Source of the DNA: Escherichia coli
GTDB taxonomy: Bacteria; Pseudomonadota; Gammaproteobacteria; Enterobacterales; Enterobacteriaceae
Length of the DNA stretch: 44,728 bases
Assembly: GCF_003334315.1 (NCBI RefSeq)
Contig: NZ_QOWR01000039.1
Strand: one strand, 5' to 3'
Shown here: positions 5,232 through 43,565 of the stretch, one piece after another
Layout of the letters: every line of letters begins with the position of its first letter
Numbering within the stretch: position 1 is the first letter of the stretch
The notes under the pieces: model-generated
The model's database searches: none
Told to the model about the DNA's origin: nothing
What the model saw: only the letters and a program-made list of their open reading frames with translations
Position numbers and translations under genes: made by a program

Positions 5232-6638
5232 ATGCTACTTCCCGTTGTCATGGCCGGTGGTTCAGGTACCAGATTATGGCCTCTTTCACGTACACTTTAT
5301 CCGAAACAATTTCTGTCTTTAAATAGTCGTTTAACCATGTTGCAAGAGACATTGCGGCGGCTTGACAAGATCGAACATAAACCCGCTTTGGTCATTTGTA
5401 ACGAATCACATCGCTTTATCGTTGCTGAACAATTGCGTAAAGAGGGTTTAAAGCATAGTGGTATTTTGCTTGAGCCTGTGGGTCGTAATACTGCGCCTGC
5501 TGTAGCACTCGCAGCACTTCAAGCTATGGTAACTGGAGATGATCCTATTCTGTTGGTTCTTGCTGCTGATCATGAAATCCAGAATGAGGATAATTTCATT
5601 GATGCAGTTCTTGCAGCCAAGAATTTTGCAGAGCAGGGTAAGCTTGTTACGTTTGGTATTGTTCCAACATCCCCAGAGACTGGCTATGGTTACATTAAGT
5701 CAGGTGAATCTTTGGATGGAAAAGGTTACAAAGTTGCGGCTTTTGTTGAAAAACCAGAGCTTCACGTAGCTCAGCGGTATATATCAGATGGCGGTTATCT
5801 TTGGAATAGTGGGATGTTTATGTTCAGAGCATCTGTATTTATCGATGAACTGAAAAAATTCCGACCAGATATTTTAGCCAGTTGCCAAAGCTCTCTGTCC
5901 TCTTCGACACAAGATTTAGATTTTATCCGTCTGGATAACTCTTCATTTTCTTGCTGTCCTGAAGAGTCGATTGATTATGCCGTTATGGAAAAAACAGCCG
6001 AAGCTGTCGTCGTTCCATTAAATGCGCAATGGAGTGATGTTGGGTCATGGTCTGCATTGTGGGAAATAAGTTCAAAAGACCAAAGCGGCAATGCCATTCG
6101 TGGTGATGTATTGGTGGAAGATGCTACAGATAGTTATCTTTATTCGCAGCATAGACTTATTGGTGCCGTGGGCGTAAAGGATTTGGTTGTTGTTGAAACG
6201 AAAGATGCCGTATTAGTTGCTCATAAAGACAAAGTTCAGCAAGTTAAAAATATTGTCGCTCAACTTAAAAAAAATAATCGAACAGAATATTTACAGCATC
6301 GGGAAATTTTTCGGCCCTGGGGCAGTCATGATACTATAGCTGAAGGGCCGCGCTTTCAAGTGAAACATGTGATTGTATTACCTGGTCACATTACCGCTAA
6401 GCAGATTCATTACCATCGTACTGAGCATTGGATTGTTGTCTCGGGGACAGCTAAAGTTCATCTTGAAGATAAGACTTATCTTGTTTCTGAAAATGAATCA
6501 ACATACATACCTGTTGGTGTTCCACATGCCATTGAAAATCCTGGCAAGATCCCACTCGAAATAATTGAGGTTAGATCAGGAGTCTACCTTGAAGAGGATG
6601 ATGTTATAAGAGTTCCTTCTTCTGGAGTAGGATACTAA
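5232..6638 (+). CDS. manC: mannose-1-phosphate guanylyltransferase (bifunctional ManC type with C-terminal cupin)
   Basis: MLLPVVMAGGSGTRLWPLSR..; the C-terminal cupin region has ..HYHRTEHWIVVSG.. Confidence 0.93.
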   Translation: MLLPVVMAGGSGTRLWPLSRTLYPKQFLSLNSRLTMLQETLRRLDKIEHKPALVICNESHRFIVAEQLRKEGLKHSGILLEPVGRNTAPAVALAALQAMVTGDDPILLVLAADHEIQNEDNFIDAVLAAKNFAEQGKLVTFGIVPTSPETGYGYIKSGESLDGKGYKVAAFVEKPELHVAQRYISDGGYLWNSGMFMFRASVFIDELKKFRPDILASCQSSLSSSTQDLDFIRLDNSSFSCCPEESIDYAVMEKTAEAVVVPLNAQWSDVGSWSALWEISSKDQSGNAIRGDVLVEDATDSYLYSQHRLIGAVGVKDLVVVETKDAVLVAHKDKVQQVKNIVAQLKKNNRTEYLQHREIFRPWGSHDTIAEGPRFQVKHVIVLPGHITAKQIHYHRTEHWIVVSGTAKVHLEDKTYLVSENESTYIPVGVPHAIENPGKIPLEIIEVRSGVYLEEDDVIRVPSSGVGY

Positions 6639-15742: not shown

Positions 15743-15743
<1 letters not shown>

Positions 15744-16809
15744 TACAGCACTCCTTTCGACGACGGCAGGGTGTCGCCTTCCACGCGGATGGCCTGGCGC
15801 AGGGTGCGACCAAAGGCTTTGAACAGGCTCTCTACACGGTGGTGATCGTTTTTACCTTTAGTTTTCAGGTGTAGCGTCACGCCCATGGTGTAAGAGAGCG
15901 AACGGAAGAAGTGCTCGATCATTTCGGTGCTGAGATCGCCCACGCGTTGGTAGGTAAACTCGGCTTTATATTCCAGGTGCGGGCGACCAGAGATATCCAG
16001 CGCGCAGCGGGCAAGGCATTCGTCCATCGGTAGCACAAAACCAAAGCGGCAAATACCGCGTTTGTCTCCGAGGGCGATTTTTAGCGCTTCGCCCAGCGCC
16101 AGGCCGGTATCTTCGACGGTGTGGTGATCGTCGATATAGAGGTCGCCTTTGACGTTGATTTCCATGCGGAAACCGCCGTGGGTGGCGATCTGATCCAGCA
16201 TGTGATCAAAGAAGCCAACACCGGTGTTAATCTTGCTGCCACCTTCGCGATCCAGCCACACCTGGACGTCAATTTGCGTCTCTTTGGTGTTGCGCACTAC
16301 ATGGGCGTAACGGTCTCGTTTAGTGAGTTGCTCGCCAATCATCGGCCAGTTCAGGATTTCGCGGTCGTAGCGTAAACCATTAATGCCCATGTTTTCCGCC
16401 AGTTGAATGTCGGTCGCGCGATCGCCAATCACATAACTGTTAGCGCGATCCATCGCTTGCTCAGCCAGATAACGCTCTACCAGTTTTACTTTCGGCTTAC
16501 GGCAGTCGCACTCATCGGCGGGCAGGTGCGGACAAATCAGCACTTCATCAAACTGCACGCCTTGCGAGGTGAAGATCTGCATCATCAGGTTGTGCGGGCC
16601 ATCGAAATCCGCCTGCGGGAAACTTTGTGTTCCCAGACCATCCTGATTAGTGATCATCACCAGCTTGTAGCCCGCTTTTTGCAGCTTCAGCAGCTGTGGG
16701 ATCACGCCCGGTTCAAAGGCGAGTTTGTCAAAACGGTCCACCTGAAAATCACTCGGCGGTTCGCTAATCAGGGTTCCATCGCGATCGATAAAAAGATACT
16801 TCTGACTCA

Positions 16810-16810
<1 letters not shown>
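15743..16810 (-). CDS. hisB: bifunctional histidinol-phosphatase / imidazoleglycerol-phosphate dehydratase
   Basis: [25 protein letters not shown].. matches HisB. The ATG at 16810 overlaps the hisC stop. Confidence 0.97.
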
Positions 16811-19181
<2,371 letters not shown>

Positions 19182-35442: not shown

Positions 35443-35474
35443 AAAAAAGCCGCGTCTCCCGGAGAAGACGCGGC
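35443..35474 (-). terminator. rho-independent terminator after the secreted-protein gene pair
   Basis: On the minus strand, GCCGCGTCT-tctccggg-AGACGCGGC is followed by TTTTTTC. Confidence 0.8.
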
Positions 35475-35617
35475 CTGACGGGTGAAATGAATAAGGTTTA
35501 TTGTCTGAGAGGCCTTTCACTGGCGAGCCACGCATTAAGCGGCTTTCCGGTAACAATGGCTGGGGCTGTATTTACCTTTGATATTAATAATGTGCAGAGA
35601 AACGCATGGTTTACTCC

Positions 35618-36028
35618 TTAGATTTTAAGTTTGTCCTGGGCTACAACGACAGGTTTTCCGGATGTGTCGATGACTCCTACCGTCGGTACGCCATTTTTGA
35701 TTTCGAAGAACGGTTTGTTGCTACCTGAGCACAGTTGATTGTCCCCGTATTCAATCATTTGTGCTTTCCCGGTTTTCAGGTTAACTACCGAGACAGTGTA
35801 GTCGTAGCACCAGGCACCACCACGTTCAAGCACGAAAACATAGCTGTTATCTTTATAGTTGAACTGATTCTTTGTCTGGCAATTCATACCGTCAATTTCG
35901 GTACAGGAAAACGCTTCTGTAGTATTAACGTATTTGATGTTATTTGGCAGTTTTACTTGTTTCGCAGTAGCGAAGACAGAGAACAGAATAGTTACAGCAA
36001 CGAGTAAAGTTTTGATAAAAGTTTTCAT
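35618..36028 (-). CDS. hypothetical secreted protein (136 aa, cleavable signal peptide, five Cys in the mature part)
   Basis: The N-terminus MKTFIKTLLVAVTILFSVFATA-KQ looks like a Sec signal. I recognise no family. The gene is AT-richer than the flanking island genes. Confidence 0.6.
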   Translation of the reverse strand: MKTFIKTLLVAVTILFSVFATAKQVKLPNNIKYVNTTEAFSCTEIDGMNCQTKNQFNYKDNSYVFVLERGGAWCYDYTVSVVNLKTGKAQMIEYGDNQLCSGSNKPFFEIKNGVPTVGVIDTSGKPVVVAQDKLKI

Positions 36029-36043
36029 GATAGACTCCTTAAA

Positions 36044-36532
36044 TTAGTTAAACGCAGCTACGTAGTTTTTCACCAGATACGCGAATTCATGCACGCCAAT
36101 TTCACCGAACCAAACCAGGTAGGCCGGGTCATCTAAACCAAAGTAACGGTAGCCAACAACTTCATGGGTTTTTGGGTTATAGAGTGTTACGATAAAGTCC
36201 CAGCCGCAGGTATTGGCTTTGCAACCGTCGCCCTGGAGCCAGACTGTATCGTTAATGTTTACTGGCGTGATACCTCCACCAGGGCCATCCATATAGCCGC
36301 CTTTACCGAACATGCCGCTCAGTCCGACCGGTTTTAATGCTTTGTCGATAGCGGCTTTGTAGGTAGCGTCACCTTCGTACAACTCGTACGTTGATGGACA
36401 CGCTCCAGGTTGTTCAGCCCAGGCTTCCGGGTTACAACTAAGTGCTTGTTTTACGGTAGCCGCTTCTGCGTTAAAGTTAAAGCCCGTGAACAGAACCGCC
36501 AGAAATAACATAAGGGTATGTAAACGTTTCAT
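36044..36532 (-). CDS. secreted protein with Ivy-like (inhibitor of vertebrate lysozyme) signature
   Basis: From the ATG at 36532 the protein reads MKRLHTLMLFLAVLFTGFNFNAEA-ATVKQ.. (signal peptide). The core ..VWLQGDGCKANTCGWDFIVTLYNP.. parallels the Ivy loop ..QVMSACKPHDCGSQRIAVMWSE.. (C-K-x3-C-G followed by a beta strand). The ORF track extends to 36835, but that extension crosses the upstream terminator. An alternative start at 36727 (MKLPVKLLMSLISLVSVIARA) is possible. Confidence 0.5.
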   Translation of the reverse strand: MKRLHTLMLFLAVLFTGFNFNAEAATVKQALSCNPEAWAEQPGACPSTYELYEGDATYKAAIDKALKPVGLSGMFGKGGYMDGPGGGITPVNINDTVWLQGDGCKANTCGWDFIVTLYNPKTHEVVGYRYFGLDDPAYLVWFGEIGVHEFAYLVKNYVAAFN

Positions 36533-36821
36533 TGTAAATATTCTTCCGTTGTAAATGGCGCTGGAAAATTTCTCATCAGTGAAACCTTCCGGAAGTTTCC
36601 CCCCCTTGTATGATGTATATCGCCAGTATTTTATTTCATCCCGGCTGTAATTTTTATATTCCCCGGCACGTGCAATAACGCTGACCAGAGATATAAGGCT
36701 CATTAATAACTTTACAGGTAATTTCATAATTAAATTTCCAGTGAGTGAATTGACAGGTGAGGGGTAAAACTTTCTCTCAGGTAATATATATCTGAAAATA
36801 TTTTCAATAACACCAGACAGG

Positions 36822-36847
36822 AAAAACACCACCACAGGCGGTGGCGT
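36822..36847 (-). terminator. putative terminator of the dynamin-like/patatin operon
   Basis: On the minus strand, ACGCCACC-gcctgt-GGTGGTGT (one G-U pair) is followed by TTTTC. It lies 15 nt after the patatin stop. Confidence 0.6.
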
Positions 36848-36862: not shown

Positions 36863-37933
36863 TTATTTAATCCGGGCCATCGCGTTTCTCAGTGCCAAAT
36901 CTGCCTCTTCCGTTATATCCAGGCTTTTCTGCAATACCGCCTCTGACCGGGTCAGTGCCTGACGTGCTGCCAAGGGGTTCCGGATATGCTCCATCGTCAG
37001 CATCGTGTCTTCATAGCCCTGCTGACGCCAGATGTCGGTATGTGCCGATGTAAAACTGAGCAGACCGCCACTTTTGCCTTCTTCCCCTGTGTGTTTCAGC
37101 CTTTTCCGGGGACGGATTTCAAGGATTGTGGTGTCCGGAAAAGCCCGGCGATCCCATAAAGAACCGTCACTCAGATGCGTCACAATCACCATATTGCATC
37201 CGGCATCGACCAGAGGCGTTACAGGGGTATTTCCCTGCATATTTCGCCATCCTCCCATCCCACCATCACCGAACATTGTCCCCTGAACCTCACGGGGATG
37301 GAACAACAGGGGCAGTGCGGCTGACGCAAGCAGAGCCTCTTTCTGCTGTCCGCGGGGCAGACTCTGGATATGCTGAAAAACGGCGTTTTTCGTGGTTCCG
37401 GCACCCAGTTCAGCACGAATGCAGTCAATAATATCCTGTATGCCCCCTTCTGTGGGGTACAGCGACACATACAGCGGTAGCCCGTCTGCCAGAGCATCAG
37501 TATCAAGATAATGATCCATCAGCGCTGTCAGAGGCTCATCTGACAACAGCGGCTGAGCCATCGGATTGTCGAAGCCGTTGATTATCGATATATGGCGAAG
37601 AAGTATCGTAAGCAGTGCTCCTGCACGTCCGGGGATCTGGCAGAGGTTCATTGCCTGGAACAATTTTTTCAGCAATGAAAAGTAAACCGATCGGTTTACC
37701 GACAGCACCTGATTATTCCCCAGATGATCCCAGAGCGCCTCCAGGCGTACGGCAGCTTCTGACAGATCGGGAGAGGCCGCGATAATGGCACCATTGAATG
37801 CGCCAATGCTGGCCCCTGAAACCATGCTGATCTGTGTACCACACTCTGCCAGTGCCTTAACCACTCCCGCCTGATAAGCGCCCACCGCCCCGCCACCGGA
37901 CAGCACCAGCCCCGTTTTCATTTCTGTACTCAT
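36863..37933 (-). CDS. patatin-like phospholipase
   Basis: It has the oxyanion-hole motif LSGGGAVGAYQAG (aa 11-23), the nucleophile elbow G-A-S-I-G (Ser42) and the catalytic D-G-G (Asp223). The ATG overlaps the upstream stop (ATGA). Confidence 0.88.
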   Translation of the reverse strand: MSTEMKTGLVLSGGGAVGAYQAGVVKALAECGTQISMVSGASIGAFNGAIIAASPDLSEAAVRLEALWDHLGNNQVLSVNRSVYFSLLKKLFQAMNLCQIPGRAGALLTILLRHISIINGFDNPMAQPLLSDEPLTALMDHYLDTDALADGLPLYVSLYPTEGGIQDIIDCIRAELGAGTTKNAVFQHIQSLPRGQQKEALLASAALPLLFHPREVQGTMFGDGGMGGWRNMQGNTPVTPLVDAGCNMVIVTHLSDGSLWDRRAFPDTTILEIRPRKRLKHTGEEGKSGGLLSFTSAHTDIWRQQGYEDTMLTMEHIRNPLAARQALTRSEAVLQKSLDITEEADLALRNAMARIK

Positions 37934-38835
37934 GCAGCCCCCTTCTGAAATATTTCATCGACCATACTTTCAGAGAGGCGTTCTGCAGAGCAGAGGCGAG
38001 GCATGCGAACCGGTAAGTGTTCTGCAGCCTGCGTGGTTGACCAGATCACCGGATGCTGCTCTTCACTGCACCAGTCTCCCAGCCAGTTAATCGCGTCATG
38101 CCACTCGTTATCTGCCTGCTCCCGGCCCTGACCACCAAGCCAGTCCAGAGTGTTCAGACGCACGGTTGCACTACCGCCACTCTCCTGTGCCATCTGCGTT
38201 AATGCTTTATGTCTGAGAATATCCAGTAGCTGGTTAACCTGGCCTGTTTCGCTCTGACGTATCACATCACCAAACGCGCCCCAGCGAAGCTCTTCAAGTG
38301 CCACATAACAACGTCCGGCAGGGGAAAATGACGCATATCGCCCGGCGCTCCACCATGAGAATATCTGCTCAAGATGTAACTGCGCCCGCTGAACCTGGTC
38401 AACACGGTGGAGTTTTTCTTCAAGATGATTCAGTTTATGGTGAACCTGATCGGCCAGGGTGAGTAACTGCTCCCGCGTATCTGCGGAATAATGCGCCAGC
38501 CTGGCTGTATCACTGACCAGTGAACTGACCCTGTCGTTTACCCGGGTAATCGCGTAGTTTGTGGTGGCAAGTGACGTTGTCATCTCCGTCAGCCAGCGCA
38601 GGGACGCCTCAACGCCCTGTGCAAGCGACGCATTGATGGCATTCTGCCGTGCAGCGCCTTCGCCGGTCAGCCCCTCTTTTAAACGCCGGAAGAACGTGCG
38701 CTCTCCGGCCGTGCGGATATGCTCCTGTGCAACATCGATTCCGTTTGCGAAATCAACCACAAATTTTTCAGGAAGACAGGTGAGTACCTGACATACCCGG
38801 TTATCAGCAATTTGTTGAATAAATGGTGAAGTCAC
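37930..38835 (-). CDS. YjcZ/RdcB-like protein (partner of the dynamin-like GTPase)
   Basis: The 301-aa protein has a central coiled-coil-like segment (..REQLLTLADQVHHKLNHLEEKLHRVDQVQRAQLHLEQ..). Its size, position immediately after a YjdA-like GTPase and motifs such as ..GEGAARQNAINASL.. and ..ALEELRWGAFGD.. recall E. coli YjcZ (RdcB). The GTG start overlaps the upstream stop (GTGA). Confidence 0.6.
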   Translation of the reverse strand: MTSPFIQQIADNRVCQVLTCLPEKFVVDFANGIDVAQEHIRTAGERTFFRRLKEGLTGEGAARQNAINASLAQGVEASLRWLTEMTTSLATTNYAITRVNDRVSSLVSDTARLAHYSADTREQLLTLADQVHHKLNHLEEKLHRVDQVQRAQLHLEQIFSWWSAGRYASFSPAGRCYVALEELRWGAFGDVIRQSETGQVNQLLDILRHKALTQMAQESGGSATVRLNTLDWLGGQGREQADNEWHDAINWLGDWCSEEQHPVIWSTTQAAEHLPVRMPRLCSAERLSESMVDEIFQKGAA

Positions 38836-41228
38836 AGCATTGTCTCCAGCTCTTCCCTCAGCGCCTTACTGTCAGTAATGAGCTCAGGAACCCTTTCATT
38901 TAATGCCTGAAGTCGCCCGGTAAGTCGTTCCTGCGCCTGCTGATCGCGTTTATGATCTTCAGAGCTCTGAATCAGCGTGTTACGCAGTTGTTCAACTTTC
39001 TCCCTGAATGCGCAGAAAAAGGCATCGATTTCCTGGCGGACGGGCTGGTTAATATCCTGCTCAATGGATGCCTGCAGCTCCCCGAAATATGCCCGGGTCA
39101 GTGACATAACTTCCTCTCTGACCTTGTTGATATTGATCACGCTGCGACTCACATCCTCGTCATAGTTTTCCCAGCCCAGGTCACTGGTGCCAAACCATCG
39201 ACAAACGGTTCCCCATACGCCACTCTGCCGACGGCGACGGGTGACGGTCTCCGTTCTTTCCTCCATAAGCGCACTCAGATTTATTTTTACCGCGAGCCGG
39301 GTCTGTAACTGGCTGACTGCCGGAAAACTGATTTTTACGGTAAAGCCCTCATCCTCCAGGCGGGCATTGATGCGACCGGCAATGTTTTCTGTGGCGTACA
39401 GGGCCGTGCCACGAAAACCTGTTTCAATCCCGCTGACGATTTTCTCCAGCTCAGGCCGGAACTGTGCTTCAGCCTCACGGTGCAGGCTGGTCACGGTCGA
39501 TTCGATTTGCGTCATCAGTTCAAGGGCTTCCCTGCGATCACTGAATTTTATTTCGGGGCTGTCCGGGGCAAAATCTCGTTTCCTGTAATCCTCCCGGCCC
39601 TGGTTGTTGATACCGGACCATTGAGAAATTTTCCCCCATAATCCGGACTGAGACCTTCGTTGTTCTGCGTCTTCTTCCTCCAGCATTTGCTGTTCTTTGC
39701 GTTTACCGCTTCTGAAATAGTCATTCAGCTCCTCTTCCAGTGAGGTGCAGACCCCCGTCAGTAATTCCCGGGTTTTAGTATCGATCTCCTCCATGGCCAT
39801 TCTGACATCAGTGGTCATCTGCTCCTGACAGTCCGCGATTTCCCGGATATCCGCAAGCAGGCTGGTGATATGCGACTGCAGTGACTGAATGCTTTGCTGT
39901 AGCCCCTGATGGCGTAACAACAGGTATTCACTGATATTTTCTGCATTCTGCATCAGTTTTGCGGCGGCAGAGTCAACCGCCAGTGCCGCAGCTCTGGAAT
40001 GTGAGCTCTGTATGACTTCCGTTATCAGTTGATCGATAAGTGAGCCTTCCCACAGGTCTGTCGCCCCTTCAGTTGCCAGTTCACTGTCTTTACAGACGTA
40101 TTCTTTTTTCATGCAACCGAAGGCACCTCTGATAAAATCATCGACCCAGGCTTCATCAACAGGAAGGGTTCCGTTTTTCCGTAACTCATGAAGCGCACGG
40201 TTAGCCAGGTATGCCTGGCGTGAGGATCCGGGATAAACGCGGGAGGCGGGCAGCACATCGCTGTTCAGCATTGCCGGAACTTTCTGGCGTACGGCATCTG
40301 CCCCATCGCCATTGCGGTCTTTCTCATCAAATTTATTGACCAGTACAAACAGGCGGCCGGCTGATACGTCAGCAATGGCATTAAGCTCTTTACGGACGTC
40401 TTCATCCGCTTTTGAGTTCATCTGGGTGTAATCCATCACAGCCAGAACCGCAGAGGCTTTCTGCAGTTGATCCCGCATCATCACTTCCATCTGCGGTTGT
40501 CCGGCCTCATTAGGGCCGGGGGTATCCAGCAGTGTGAGTGTTCCCTGGCATGCATCCATCCCCACCAGATGGCTGAATTCCACGTCGATCACCGGCAGTT
40601 TCTGCACTTCTGCGTATTCATCAAAAGGAAATTCAGTCCCCATTGCCGCAGCAAGACGAACCAGATCGTTTAACGATGCCAGTCCGGTAAAGATTTCCTC
40701 CTCCCCGTGGTATTCATTTTTGAGCCAGCCATCATCCGTCAGAATATCCAGCAGTTCGCGGGTATCCCCGGTTTGCTGCAGGGTCTGTGCGACCTGCTGT
40801 CCTGCCGGGGTGGCGAGTTTTTCCTGCAGTGTGATTAATAAATTGCGGACAGGCTGAATATGTTCCAGATGGAGAACCGGCTCAGTTTTTCCGGGAACGT
40901 GGCGGATGAGCGTCGGTACAGAGGTCATGGGGCGGTTACGGTTAGGCAGAATTTCCTGCCCCACAATGGCGTTGATGGTGGTTGATTTGCCTGCTTTCAT
41001 CGTGCCGACAACAGCCAGCACCATCTCCCTGCGGGCGGTTTTGATTTGTTCGCCCTCCAGCTCCTCAATTCTTTTCAGTGCTTTCTGTTTATCAAAAAGC
41101 AGTCTGTTTTCGTTCTTACTGTCAGATAACACATCTGGCTCCTCAACCATTTGCCGGAGCAGATTAATGTTCAGTTGCAAAAGTCGGTCGGCTTCATCAC
41201 AAAGCAGGGCGATGTTCTTTTCGTGCAT
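38832..41228 (-). CDS. bacterial dynamin-like GTPase, CrfC/YjdA(RdcA) paralogue (798 aa)
   Basis: G1 is GTMKAGKST (aa 75-83; nt 40983-41006), G3 is DTPGPNE (aa 235-241) and G4 is NKFD (aa 298-301). The stretch MVLAVVGTMKAGKSTTINAIVGQEILPNRNRPMTSVPTLIRH is almost identical in pattern to E. coli YjdA/CrfC. The C-terminal half is long and helical. An AGGAAGG SD lies 7 nt before the ATG. Confidence 0.88.
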   Translation of the reverse strand: MHEKNIALLCDEADRLLQLNINLLRQMVEEPDVLSDSKNENRLLFDKQKALKRIEELEGEQIKTARREMVLAVVGTMKAGKSTTINAIVGQEILPNRNRPMTSVPTLIRHVPGKTEPVLHLEHIQPVRNLLITLQEKLATPAGQQVAQTLQQTGDTRELLDILTDDGWLKNEYHGEEEIFTGLASLNDLVRLAAAMGTEFPFDEYAEVQKLPVIDVEFSHLVGMDACQGTLTLLDTPGPNEAGQPQMEVMMRDQLQKASAVLAVMDYTQMNSKADEDVRKELNAIADVSAGRLFVLVNKFDEKDRNGDGADAVRQKVPAMLNSDVLPASRVYPGSSRQAYLANRALHELRKNGTLPVDEAWVDDFIRGAFGCMKKEYVCKDSELATEGATDLWEGSLIDQLITEVIQSSHSRAAALAVDSAAAKLMQNAENISEYLLLRHQGLQQSIQSLQSHITSLLADIREIADCQEQMTTDVRMAMEEIDTKTRELLTGVCTSLEEELNDYFRSGKRKEQQMLEEEDAEQRRSQSGLWGKISQWSGINNQGREDYRKRDFAPDSPEIKFSDRREALELMTQIESTVTSLHREAEAQFRPELEKIVSGIETGFRGTALYATENIAGRINARLEDEGFTVKISFPAVSQLQTRLAVKINLSALMEERTETVTRRRRQSGVWGTVCRWFGTSDLGWENYDEDVSRSVININKVREEVMSLTRAYFGELQASIEQDINQPVRQEIDAFFCAFREKVEQLRNTLIQSSEDHKRDQQAQERLTGRLQALNERVPELITDSKALREELETML

Positions 41229-41289
41229 TATTTAACCTTCCTAAGACGCATTTTCATGACAACCACGGAGGAGGTCATTTACTACAAAC

Positions 41290-41336
41290 GATCGTTTATA
41301 ACGATCGATATGATAGTAACGATCGATGTATTCTAT
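41290..41336 (-). promoter_or_regulatory. three clustered GATC (Dam) sites with an OxyR-like tetrad pattern; agn43-type phase-variation switch
   Basis: GATC occurs at 41290-41293, 41303-41306 and 41321-41324, each as CGATCG. On the minus strand the tetrads ATAG-n7-CGAT-n7-ATCA-n7-CGTT (41336 down to 41300) fit the 4-7-4-7-4-7-4 spacing of the OxyR consensus. The region lies between the predicted -10 and the dynamin-like gene, in the same place relative to yeeP as the flu regulatory region in K-12. Confidence 0.65.
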
Positions 41337-41358
41337 TAACTTGAGAAACACAACGCAA
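41330..41358 (-). promoter_or_regulatory. sigma70-type promoter of the dynamin-like operon
   Basis: The minus strand has TTGCGT (41358-41353), a 17-nt spacer and TAGAAT (41335-41330), about 100 nt upstream of the ATG at 41228. Confidence 0.6.
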
Positions 41359-41445
41359 GGGGACAACCCGGGTATGGCTGCGTTTGCATAGTGTTTTCAT
41401 GGAGTTAAAAATCTGTAACAACAGCCTGGTACATCACCACCGGGT

Positions 41446-42318
41446 TCAGAAGAAAATCCAGTTCCATACCGCGCGGGCAACAGAGACCACCGAGTCACGG
41501 ACGGCGCGCAGAACCGTGCGTGCAACAGAGGCAATGCAGACGCTCTCCGCCGTGTCAAATATCCGGTCCACCGCACCGGTAAACTGTTCACGGGCCTGAG
41601 ACCGGACAGACTCCGTGCGCAGCTCGTCCTGCAGGCGGGTCATCAGGGGACTGGCGGCATGGTCGGGAAGTGCTGTCATGAGCGCACTGACCAGCGTATC
41701 CAGTTCCCAGCCGGTGCGGGCCGATACGGCAACAACCCGATGTACGGGCCGGAACAGACGGAATACCGCCTCCGTTTTTTCGCGAATGTTCTGTGCCTGT
41801 GCGGGAGAAGGCTGAATACCGGCCATATCCCATTCATGGCAGGGCTCCGTTTTATCGGCCTGCATCACCACAAACAGTACCCGCTGATGTCCCCGGTGCA
41901 GGATGTGTCGCCAGAAATACTCATCCACAGACAGGGCACGGTCATCGGCTTTAATCAGCCACAGTACCAGGTCCAGTTCGAGCAGAATGTCACGGTACAG
42001 GGCTTCATACTCTGCATCCCTGTCCCGGCTCTCGCCCACCCCGGGCAGGTCAGTGATAACCATGCTGTGACCATGGCCATTCAGACGGAAGCGCTGCACT
42101 TCCCGGGGGCCGGCGTGAACATCACTGACCGGGGTGACCTCCCCCTGAAACAGCGCATTACAGAGTGAGGATTTACCGGCCCCGCTTTTACCCATAATGC
42201 CAGGCACGGGTTCGTGACTGGTGAGTTTGCGCAGATGTTCCAGGATGTGACGGGAAAGTGAGTAAGGCAGGGAGGAGAGCGGTTTTTCAATTGCCTCAAT
42301 GGCATCAGACGGATTCAT
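41446..42318 (-). CDS. yeeP: island-associated GTPase of the YeeP/YkfA/YfjP family
   Basis: MNPSDAIEAIEKPLSSLPYSLSRHILEHLRKLTSHEPVPGIMGKSGAGKSSLCNALF.. has a P-loop, DLPG and a divergent G4 (QADK in place of NKxD). It matches YkfA/YeeP from the ATG at 42318; the ORF-track start at 42357 adds 13 codons. Confidence 0.88.
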   Translation of the reverse strand: MNPSDAIEAIEKPLSSLPYSLSRHILEHLRKLTSHEPVPGIMGKSGAGKSSLCNALFQGEVTPVSDVHAGPREVQRFRLNGHGHSMVITDLPGVGESRDRDAEYEALYRDILLELDLVLWLIKADDRALSVDEYFWRHILHRGHQRVLFVVMQADKTEPCHEWDMAGIQPSPAQAQNIREKTEAVFRLFRPVHRVVAVSARTGWELDTLVSALMTALPDHAASPLMTRLQDELRTESVRSQAREQFTGAVDRIFDTAESVCIASVARTVLRAVRDSVVSVARAVWNWIFF

Positions 42319-42401
42319 ACATGTATTCCCGGTGAAAAAAGACAAAACCCCGCGCACCGGAAAGGTGGCGGGGGATTCACGGAAATAATATCTGTCTGAA
42401 A

Positions 42402-43565
42402 TTATCTGGAATCGATTTGGCTGTTCTGCCTGGTTGCCACCAAATCATGGTACGCCTGCTCAATCATTTCATTCAGCAGTTTTTTTGGGAGGACACCACG
42501 ACTTCGGGCAATACTTTCAAGCTGTTTGTGGATTTTTCCGGACAGTTTCAGAGGGACGGAACCATCAGCACGTTCATCACGCCTTTTTTGTTGCTCCCGG
42601 GCACTTTTCAGCTCATCAAGAAGAATCGCTTTATGCTGAATCCTGGGGGCCTGGAAGGAGACCTGCGTAAACTTCGCTCTGTTCCGTCTGGGATTACTTT
42701 CCAGTAAAAACTGTACCTGTTGCTCATTCCAGCCCTCCCAGTTATCAAACGTGGCGCAGGCAAACCAGTATTTCTGCTCCGGGGTAAGGGGATTCAGCGG
42801 GGTTCCCACACACCGGACCTGCATGGCGTTCCATAACCAGTCACACTGTTCACTGTCCCTGCTGTCCACCCACGAAAAGGGGGAGGGGTAATCATTGTTT
42901 ATGCTGGCCCATTCAGAGAATACTGAGTTGATAATCGTCCTCGTAGCCTCTGGTCCGGATTTCAGCAGGTAACTGGAGCAGAACCATATAATTTCACGGT
43001 AGATTTTATCCGGATGCACGGTGCGCATCGGCTTTTCTCTGGGACCGGCAATCTTCGGTTGCGATGGAAACCCCGTGGCAAACCGCAGATGTTCCGGGGG
43101 CATTCCTGAACGTTTTTCAGGAATGGGTGTGAGTCCTGCGTTTCTGGTCTTTTCCGCTTGTCCGGTATTGTCTCCGGCCGGAGTGTTGTCGGGAGTATCT
43201 TCCGGAGGCGAGGTGTTTTCATTAGTTGGGGGAACAACAGCAGAACTGTCCATCTCCGGAATGGGTTGAGGGGCATAATCACTGTGGTAGCCAGGGGAAA
43301 GCGTTAAGTCCCGAAGGGTGACATCAGGTTCCGGGCAGTGAGTGCCACCGGGAGTGAACGGGAGTTGTTGCTTTTGGGAGAAAAATGTATTGTGAATGCG
43401 GGTATACAGCTGGAACAGAAAAAAATAAGATGCCCGTGGTTCTTTTTTTAACCACTGTGTATATTCCTCTATGGCACCGAGCTGTTGTTTGTGCCGTTTT
43501 ACAGCATCGATATACGGACAGCTGGTGCAGATATCATCCAGTTCCTTTCCCACAATACACCTCAC
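42402..43565 (-). CDS. hypothetical island protein (about 383-387 aa) with a Pro/Thr-rich central linker; start codon uncertain (GTG at 43565 or 43553)
   Basis: This is a long ORF in the same orientation as the island genes. There is no ATG in the first ~100 codons, and the GTG at 43553 is preceded by AGGTGAGG. The central segment APQPIPEMDSSAVVPPTNENTSPPEDTPDNTPAGDNTGQAEK is low-complexity. I recognise no family. Confidence 0.55.
   Translation of the reverse strand: MRCIVGKELDDICTSCPYIDAVKRHKQQLGAIEEYTQWLKKEPRASYFFLFQLYTRIHNTFFSQKQQLPFTPGGTHCPEPDVTLRDLTLSPGYHSDYAPQPIPEMDSSAVVPPTNENTSPPEDTPDNTPAGDNTGQAEKTRNAGLTPIPEKRSGMPPEHLRFATGFPSQPKIAGPREKPMRTVHPDKIYREIIWFCSSYLLKSGPEATRTIINSVFSEWASINNDYPSPFSWVDSRDSEQCDWLWNAMQVRCVGTPLNPLTPEQKYWFACATFDNWEGWNEQQVQFLLESNPRRNRAKFTQVSFQAPRIQHKAILLDELKSAREQQKRRDERADGSVPLKLSGKIHKQLESIARSRGVLPKKLLNEMIEQAYHDLVATRQNSQIDSR

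Follow-up and report, generated by a model that had tools for sequence, protein, structure and literature searches.

How an operon headed by a dynamin-like GTPase gene is controlled in Escherichia coli is the question raised by the locus described here. The operon lies on a stretch of 44,728 nucleotides (contig NZ_QOWR01000039.1 of assembly GCF_003334315.1), referred to below as the window, and the genes here all run on its minus strand. Exactly 217 nt (41229-41445, minus strand), the length given in a preliminary description of this DNA, separate the dynamin-family open reading frame (ORF) from a yeeP-like GTPase gene, and this gap bears an element resembling the Dam/OxyR switch of agn43 (flu). 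Ag43, the product of agn43, is the textbook example of epigenetic phase variation that depends on Dam and, to our knowledge, has been treated as the only OxyR/Dam target of its type in E. coli. On the evidence given below, switch-driven, phase-variable expression of the dynamin/RdcB/patatin operon is the best explanation of the locus and, in our judgement, a probable one.

The putative promoter consists of a -35 hexamer, TTGCGT (41353-41358, minus strand, positions -34 to -29), and, 17 nt after it, a -10 hexamer, TAGAAT (41330-41335, minus strand, -11 to -6). The former takes the position of TTGTCC in K-12 flu; the latter stands 5 nt before the first Dam site, and both this hexamer and this distance are identical in K-12 flu and O157 cah. 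Three GATC sites, each in a CGATCG context, follow at the places given in the preliminary description: GATC-I at 41321-41324, GATC-II at 41303-41306 (18 nt from GATC-I) and GATC-III at 41290-41293 (13 nt from GATC-II). Altogether ten CGATCG hexamers occur in the window, three of them being the GATCs of the switch. The G of GATC-I (41324, minus strand) is the predicted +1, by homology to the annotated 5' end of IsrC, the leader RNA of K-12 flu; agn43 transcripts begin at the corresponding base, the G of the first GATC. All three sites are spanned by a predicted OxyR tetramer site, ATCGATCGTTACTAT-CATATCG-ATCGTTATAAACGAT (41291-41327, -3 to +34), which begins 2 nt after TAGAAT. Its four tetrads (ATCG, CTAT, ATCG and CGAT, at 11-nt steps) match the OxyR consensus ATAGnTnnnAnCTAT-N7-ATAGnTnnnAnCTAT, taken from PMC2909390, in 16 of the 20 positions. 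The four-tetrad pattern of the preliminary description is thus real, and its score is the highest in the window, the runner-up having 14; a score of at least 16 was reached in 3 of 200 Markov-simulated windows. In agn43 the footprint of OxyR(C199S) extends from -16 to +42. Elsewhere in the window three GATCs fall within 35 bp just once (16187-16204, element 16187-16207), inside an ORF (15743-16813, minus strand), and no OxyR-like match of 13 or more was seen there.

In K-12 the gene after yeeP is flu, as the preliminary description had stated and the K-12 annotation confirms, and its leader is annotated as the small RNA IsrC. A blastn comparison of the 96-nt core of K-12 flu with the whole window returned a single significant match, at 41289-41345 (77.6% identity over 58 nt, E=1.7e-6), so that the alignment of the gap to the K-12 yeeP-flu region, which had been proposed as a check, did reveal similarity. 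The 3' ends of K-12 yeeP and the yeeP-like ORF of the window align almost perfectly; the similarity of the two regions ends after the yeeP stop codon and resumes at about -35 to run just past GATC-III (about -36 to +36). The resemblance to K-12 had been described as complete. The homology stood, the identity did not, since GATC-I and GATC-II are 18 nt apart and not 19. The missing base falls between GATC-I and the CTAT of OxyR half-site 1, and the half-site register CTAT-N7-ATCG is kept. A GATC spacing of 18/13 was found in every copy of the window type that is free of indels, and one of 19/13 in K-12 flu, O157 cah, the Ag43 gene of GABEEC132, S. flexneri and E. ruysiae. Judged from its sequence, the window element is truly homologous to the Dam-OxyR switch of agn43/flu, and it is complete from the -35 hexamer through the OxyR site. 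It is, on the same grounds, a distinct 18/13 allele, found here only before the dynamin operon. The idea that the K-12 switch had been retained in place had to be given up: in addition to the distinct allele, the stretch between the yeeP stop and the -35 hexamer is unrelated to that of K-12.

The long leader of K-12 flu has no counterpart in the window. With the IS102/IsrC covariance model (gathering threshold 46 bits) the window scored 20 bits, compared with 252.6 bits for K-12, therefore this leader RNA is absent; nor was any other known RNA family found in the gap by the Rfam search. Wallecha and colleagues reportedly showed in 2002 that a 101-nt promoter-operator fragment of agn43 suffices for phase variation. 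The region equivalent to the agn43 promoter-operator is intact in the window, upstream of a junction at +51.

This junction was recognised by comparison with O157:H7 strain TR01, which was reached via the weakest E. coli genome match to the gap. The order in TR01 is the GTPase gene (yeeP), the switch, cah (an autotransporter gene of the Ag43 family), a 110-nt gap, the dynamin gene and the RdcB gene. Between the yeeP stop and a point shortly after GATC-III, the gap of the window aligns with the TR01 yeeP-cah gap (74.7% over 170 nt, E=2e-24). The 45 nt that lead up to the dynamin ATG, among them the ribosome-binding site AGGAAGG (41236-41242, minus strand), agree base for base with the closing 45 nt of the TR01 cah-dynamin gap. 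Common to both homologies are the three bases CCT (41272-41274, minus strand, +51 to +53). Relative to TR01, 3,115 nt are absent, comprising cah, the leader before it (which has a terminator-like hairpin) and a further 66 nt; neither the ORF list nor the annotation of the window shows an autotransporter between the switch and the first gene, which encodes a Dynamin_N protein. Since this 3.1-kb segment is missing, the whole promoter-operator has been fused to the operon that normally follows Ag43. Thus the gene behind the switch was not exchanged, as the preliminary description had suggested: Ag43/Cah normally has this operon behind it, and what the window type lacks is simply the autotransporter segment.

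No promoter-like or terminator-like site was found in the TR01 cah-dynamin gap, and therefore the operon is probably co-transcribed with cah. In O157-type islands it would thus probably have depended on the switch already. The leader of Ag43/Cah (IsrC/IS102 RNA) ends before the autotransporter start in a strong terminator-like hairpin, having a 12-bp stem and a T run (6313-6340 of locus L003 in O157:H7 TR01; the K-12 flu leader is at 5316-5519 of L001). This hairpin suggests attenuation, and the element has been lost from the leader of the window type.

The window, O157:H7 FRIK2533, 2014C-3061, CFT073 and both copies of strain MP1 have one and the same window-type junction and 18/13 spacing. 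The gap lies at about 2,027,253-2,027,469 of NZ_CP058222 in CFT073, at 4,067,355-4,067,571 and 3,686,782-3,686,998 of NZ_CP139039 in MP1, and at 39,364-39,580 of NZ_CP033884 in strain 50579417. The same junction in diverged copies indicates one old event and not a recurrent one, so the sequences point to a single origin of the window-type arrangement. Whether this was a deletion or an insertion cannot be proved. Deletion is the more parsimonious assumption, given that the same switch also stands before Ag43 genes without a dynamin operon behind them, as in K-12. When a chimeric query made of the window-type switch and the cah leader was used, no genome with the 18/13 allele before an autotransporter was found, and the best matches were TR01-like (about 91%). 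A recent or recurrent deletion of cah within O157:H7 was considered and rejected: FRIK2533 has the old window-type allele and not a freshly deleted TR01 gap. A degenerate second switch in the cah-dynamin gap, seen in one MAFFT placement, was too weak and was dropped.

The distribution of the arrangement was determined over 5426 complete E. coli genomes. The window-type 217-nt gap is present in 1986 of them (about 37%), at 2206 places, and its carriers include CFT073 and lineages such as O157:H7 and ST131. The 5' end of the dynamin gene was found in 2470 genomes at 2890 places, and the Ag43/Cah-to-dynamin junction in 635 genomes (at least 636 records). The latter order, yeeP, switch, Ag43/Cah and dynamin operon, accounts for about 22% of the copies; this type and the window type together make up almost all of the 2890 dynamin copies. 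The dynamin operon alone thus stands behind the switch in more than a third of E. coli genomes, with up to three copies per genome. Beyond E. coli a pattern scan was run on one genome per species; the pattern required the -10 hexamer and the GATC elements, hence their conservation in these matches is by construction. In E. coli, S. flexneri and E. ruysiae the promoter-operator was found after yeeP-like GTPase genes and before autotransporters. In Citrobacter amalonaticus, C. braakii and Enterobacter wuhouensis it precedes ORFs of 154 and 157 aa, neither of which has a Pfam match, followed by a DUF932 gene; the order in C. amalonaticus (4897-7017 of L007), and likewise in L012 and L013, is a yeeP-like GTPase gene, an agn43-type switch with 19/13 spacing and then these ORFs. 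They represent a third kind of cargo behind the switch, outside Escherichia. Since yeeP and the switch occur together in several species, their pairing is conserved while the cargo varies. In Yersinia similis (688-733 of L008), TAGAAT and three GATCs at 18/13 spacing occur with neither an upstream GTPase gene nor a long same-strand ORF directly downstream.

In order to look at the operator bases themselves, metagenome contigs were scanned by exact match with a 28-nt anchor downstream of the junction, which leaves the operator unconstrained by the query. Of the 120 loci obtained, 116 had enough sequence upstream to be classified, and every one of these was of the window type. Variation was counted over 113 indel-free copies (46 alleles), which are phylogenetically related. 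None of the 12 positions of the -35 and -10 hexamers is variable. Among the 12 positions of the three GATCs, 11 are invariant: GATC-I and GATC-II do not vary, and GATC-III shows one singleton G to T change among 115 copies. The other positions of the operator (41285-41329) vary in 15 of 32 cases (47%), and the upstream part of the gap in 17 of 87. Comparison of the GATC bases with the other operator positions gave p=0.03 in the Fisher test. Within the OxyR 37-mer, 4 of the 20 consensus-specified positions are variable, three of them as singletons, as against 8 of the 17 N positions, and the consensus score is 16/20 in 107 of 115 copies. The C flanking GATC-II in its CGATCG context does vary, to T in 12 copies. 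A polymorphic stretch in which the hexamers, the Dam sites and the OxyR contact positions stay constant is what a working switch predicts. The bases of the switch thus appear to be under selection, with modest statistics.

Some features of the variation deserve mention in their own right. Variation is concentrated in the operator, around GATCs that stay invariant, and this may tune switching rates or reflect recombination between alleles. In two copies (about 1040-1125 of L117 and about 2280-2365 of L037) an 18-nt deletion between direct repeats CGATCGTTA has removed one GATC and one OxyR half-site (TAGAATGCATCGATCGTTATAAACGATCG), leaving two GATCs and one half-site; these alleles are expected to be locked variants of the switch. 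In two other copies, L053 and L111, CGATCGATATGATAGT stands just past GATC-III in place of CGATCGTTTGTAGT, and this new segment is the reverse complement of the spacer between GATC-I and GATC-II, ACTATCATATCG, so that a longer operator palindrome results.

The Dam/OxyR mechanism of the agn43 type has been described in general terms (PMC2909390, PMC4872104, PMC3764049). Applied to the window, it would work as follows. With the three GATCs unmethylated, OxyR would bind, block the promoter and shield the sites from Dam, giving a heritable OFF state. Methylation of the sites by Dam after replication would keep OxyR off and let the promoter fire, giving a heritable ON state. With its position +51 joined to the final 45 nt ahead of the dynamin gene, the switch would drive a five-gene unit with a 96-nt leader, and the operon would probably be on in only part of a population. 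Folding of the leader RNA gave -25.7 kcal/mol (z=-2.6); a separate role for this fold was dropped, as the main hairpin is the palindromic GATC-II/III operator itself.

An RNA-seq study of 2026, in which the commensal E. coli strain MP1 was compared with and without prophage Kapi1 (PMC12922286), bears on the expression of the operon; its data are deposited as GSE301058. There the five-gene dynamin operon gave the strongest difference between two clonal derivatives; the difference did not depend on the medium and was left unexplained by the authors (PMC12922286). We located the cluster in NZ_CP139039 as RS19720 (dynamin), RS19715 (RdcB family) and RS19710 (patatin), followed by two small ORFs. 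Its gap, also 217 nt, is 95% identical to that of the window (10 differences), with the same hexamers, GATCs, GATC spacing and junction. Upstream lies RS19725, a frameshifted yeeP-like GTPase gene which is outside the up-regulated set. Since RS19725 is not in this set and the dynamin gene is its first member, the differential transcription begins in the 217-nt gap. A second copy of the operon is present on the pathogenicity island PAI-aspV, and both copies (6484-12355 of L005 and 46999-50000 of L138, NZ_CP139039) have an intact switch. Two strains fixed in different phase states by single-colony bottlenecks would give exactly the MP1 result, which is circumstantial evidence. The promoter of hyxRAB is a known phase-variable invertible element. 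These genes also belong to the set that was up in the lysogen regardless of medium, where Bateman and Seed 2012 is cited (PMC12922286), and the agn43 literature warns of the pitfall of clonal phase states (PMC3764049). A prophage-encoded methyltransferase was considered as a conceivable cause in MP1; none is mentioned in PMC12922286. In a proteome of uropathogenic E. coli (UPEC), a dynamin-family protein was detected whose accession is that of the CFT073 copy.

Phase variation is the best supported explanation because the homology, the conservation pattern and one circumstantial transcriptome all agree with it. Several observations count against it. GATC-I and GATC-II are 18 nt apart, whereas the distance is 19 nt in all the Ag43-linked alleles examined, and GATC-I is therefore placed differently within OxyR half-site 1. 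The Fisher test for the conservation of the GATCs gave only p=0.03, with related copies. Both MP1 copies were reported as up-regulated, the second being flagged for multi-mapping (PMC12922286), and a trans-acting cause would explain this no less well than two phase switches acting independently. Finally, the preliminary description had spoken of a good sigma70 promoter, and TTGCGT-17-TAGAAT is present; 'good' was an overstatement, as no more than three of the six -35 positions agree with TTGACA and the pair went uncalled in the consensus promoter scan. The promoter gains credibility from being positionally homologous to that of flu (TTGTCC-17-TAGAAT in K-12), and it is the only plausible one directly before the dynamin-like operon.

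These points could be accommodated if the element were an agn43-derived promoter, either OxyR-repressible or constitutive, that is uniformly expressed without bistability, the changed spacing and the loss of the leader having altered the competition between Dam and OxyR. The 18/13 spacing is indeed unique to the window-type allele, the heterogeneity is argued by analogy, and the common change of the two MP1 copies suits regulation in trans. On the other hand, the CTAT-N7-ATCG register is kept and the consensus match is better than that of K-12, the region equivalent to the 101-nt agn43 fragment mentioned above is intact upstream of +51, and the retention of three GATCs amid polymorphic neighbours would be hard to explain if methylation were irrelevant. 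We regard uniform expression from such a promoter as unlikely, though still the most serious of the alternatives. A different role for the gap follows if the switch is a silent relic of a deleted autotransporter locus and the operon is read mainly from yeeP or from further upstream. The weak -35 hexamer, uncalled by the consensus scan, and a yeeP gene on the same strand 217 nt upstream would fit with this. However, in MP1 the yeeP-like gene is frameshifted and stays outside the co-regulated set, which starts at dynamin; yeeP is truncated in CFT073 and on the aspV island of MP1, and the gap is conserved nonetheless; the hexamers are invariant in 113 copies; and the scan of the gap revealed no terminator-free promoter other than this one. 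Read-through past a dead switch is thus quite improbable. That the GATC/OxyR-like pattern arose by chance, unrelated to agn43, could be argued from the 16/20 match reached in about 1.5% of the simulated windows and from the other three-GATC cluster at 16187-16204. Coincidence is effectively refuted by the significant alignments to the flu and cah regulatory regions, at the same position after the same gene, and by the order yeeP, switch, cargo, which is common to Escherichia, Shigella, Citrobacter and Enterobacter; we give it hardly any weight.

The genes on both sides of the gap are as follows. The upstream neighbour of the switch, the yeeP-like GTPase gene (41446-42357, minus strand), is a 303-aa ORF with matches to Pfam MMR_HSR1 (8.8e-13) and Dynamin_N; in NZ_CP033884, where this region is identical, it is annotated as 'GTPase family protein'. 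Upstream of this gene lies an ORF of 387 aa (42402-43565, minus strand) that has no Pfam or PADLOC match and is given as hypothetical in NZ_CP033884. The operon starts with the dynamin-family GTPase gene (38832-41228, minus strand, 798 aa, annotated 'dynamin family protein'), the stop of which is overlapped by the RdcB/YjcZ-family gene (37930-38835, minus strand, 301 aa, also annotated as such). The arrangement is that of the RdcA/RdcB type, a Dynamin_N gene (2.8e-18) overlapping an adjacent YjcZ gene (4.1e-70). Then come a patatin-like phospholipase gene (36863-37933, minus strand, 356 aa; Pfam Patatin 1.8e-24 and annotation), a fourth ORF (36044-36835, minus strand), the MP1 equivalent of which is co-regulated, and a fifth ORF of 136 aa (35618-36028, minus strand). 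The last two are without family match in Pfam and PADLOC and are annotated as hypothetical. A strong intrinsic-terminator-like hairpin with a 13-bp stem and a T run (35447-35476, minus strand) is the likely end of the five-gene unit. There is also a weak terminator-like hairpin right after the patatin gene (36827-36843, minus strand), so the read-through to the two small ORFs may be partial; this hairpin notwithstanding, all five genes shift together in MP1.

The PADLOC search of the operon gave no LeoA match, weak partial matches to LeoBC (1.2e-5 and 8.6e-5 over about 60-85 residues) and a marginal match to a phospholipase effector. These matches being marginal, the operon is not a recognised Eleos (LeoA/LeoBC) anti-phage system, and its assignment to a known defence system was rejected. 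The authors of the MP1 study suggest phage defence as its function, and report about 30% amino acid identity of the island proteins to the core RdcAB (PMC12922286). A role in phage defence or in biofilm formation and aggregation is a matter of speculation, the latter idea being due to the linkage with Ag43 and to the RdcB-like gene, which hint at an aggregation/biofilm physiology as a rival to phage defence.

In a full-text literature search no paper linking the dynamin/RdcB/patatin operon to Dam or OxyR was found, and the locus is unmentioned in the methylome papers and in the paper on a UPEC dam mutant that were examined. The mechanism itself is already known; the cargo, the prevalence and the modularity are new. 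If the operon is phase-variable, a widespread operon would be ON only in a subpopulation, and the erratic transcriptomes and proteomes of clonal derivatives, the MP1 lysogen study for example, would be explained. The dam and oxyR phenotypes of pathogenic strains would gain an additional target, and the function of the operon would become directly testable with strains locked ON (by an oxyR or GATC mutation) and strains locked OFF (by a dam mutation). Somewhat more tentatively, and at a little less than even chance, the Dam/OxyR switch may be a portable epigenetic promoter cassette of a yeeP-island family (CP4-44-like) that drives whatever cargo follows, be it Ag43/Cah with the dynamin operon, the dynamin operon alone or the small ORFs of Citrobacter and Enterobacter; the dynamin operon would then be a bet-hedged membrane-remodelling/lipolytic module. 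Were the switch such a cassette, the polymorphic non-GATC bases of the operator would tune switching rates between lineages, the module would possibly be defensive or biofilm-related, and the 'prophage-induced' up-regulation of dynamin in MP1 would be a phase-state or switch-mediated effect.

Among the known systems K-12 flu is the closest. Both loci have yeeP upstream, TAGAAT 5 nt before GATC-I, a 17-nt spacer to a TTG-type -35 hexamer and three GATCs in one OxyR tetramer site (predicted in the window) just past the -10, with the unit GATCGTT-N5-CGATC and a spacing of 13 between GATC-II and GATC-III. K-12 flu differs in having 19 nt and not 18 between GATC-I and GATC-II, CGATCA in place of CGATCG around GATC-I, an OxyR consensus match of 14/20 in the same register compared with 16/20, an unrelated stretch between the yeeP stop and the -35 hexamer, and a leader of about 220 nt (IsrC/IS102 RNA, Rfam RF00124), which is absent from the window. 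Its cargo is an autotransporter adhesin, whereas in the window it is a cytoplasmic or membrane GTPase-phospholipase operon. The cah (Ag43-family) islands of O157:H7 and other E. coli share both the module and the downstream operon (dynamin about 95% identical) and differ by the extra 3,115 nt between +51 of the switch and -45 of dynamin and by the 19/13 allele. With RdcA/RdcB (YjdA/YjcZ) of K-12, which activate the diguanylate cyclase DgcE (PMC6510439), the operon shares the succession of a dynamin-like GTPase gene and a YjcZ/RdcB-family gene; the operon of the window, however, is island-borne, adds a patatin-like phospholipase and two ORFs, and sits behind the switch. In gtr of Salmonella/P22 and in opvAB, Dam and OxyR compete at GATCs within OxyR half-sites, as predicted here (PMC2909390; PMC4856963). 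In those systems the promoter is preceded by three or four OxyR half-sites, the occupancy of which alternates between activating and repressing, and the GATCs form two pairs, whereas the window has, like agn43, a single predicted site of the repressor type downstream of the -10, and there is no sequence homology between them. Nevertheless gtr and opvAB demonstrate that Dam/OxyR switches can control cargo other than adhesins (PMC2909390; PMC4856963).

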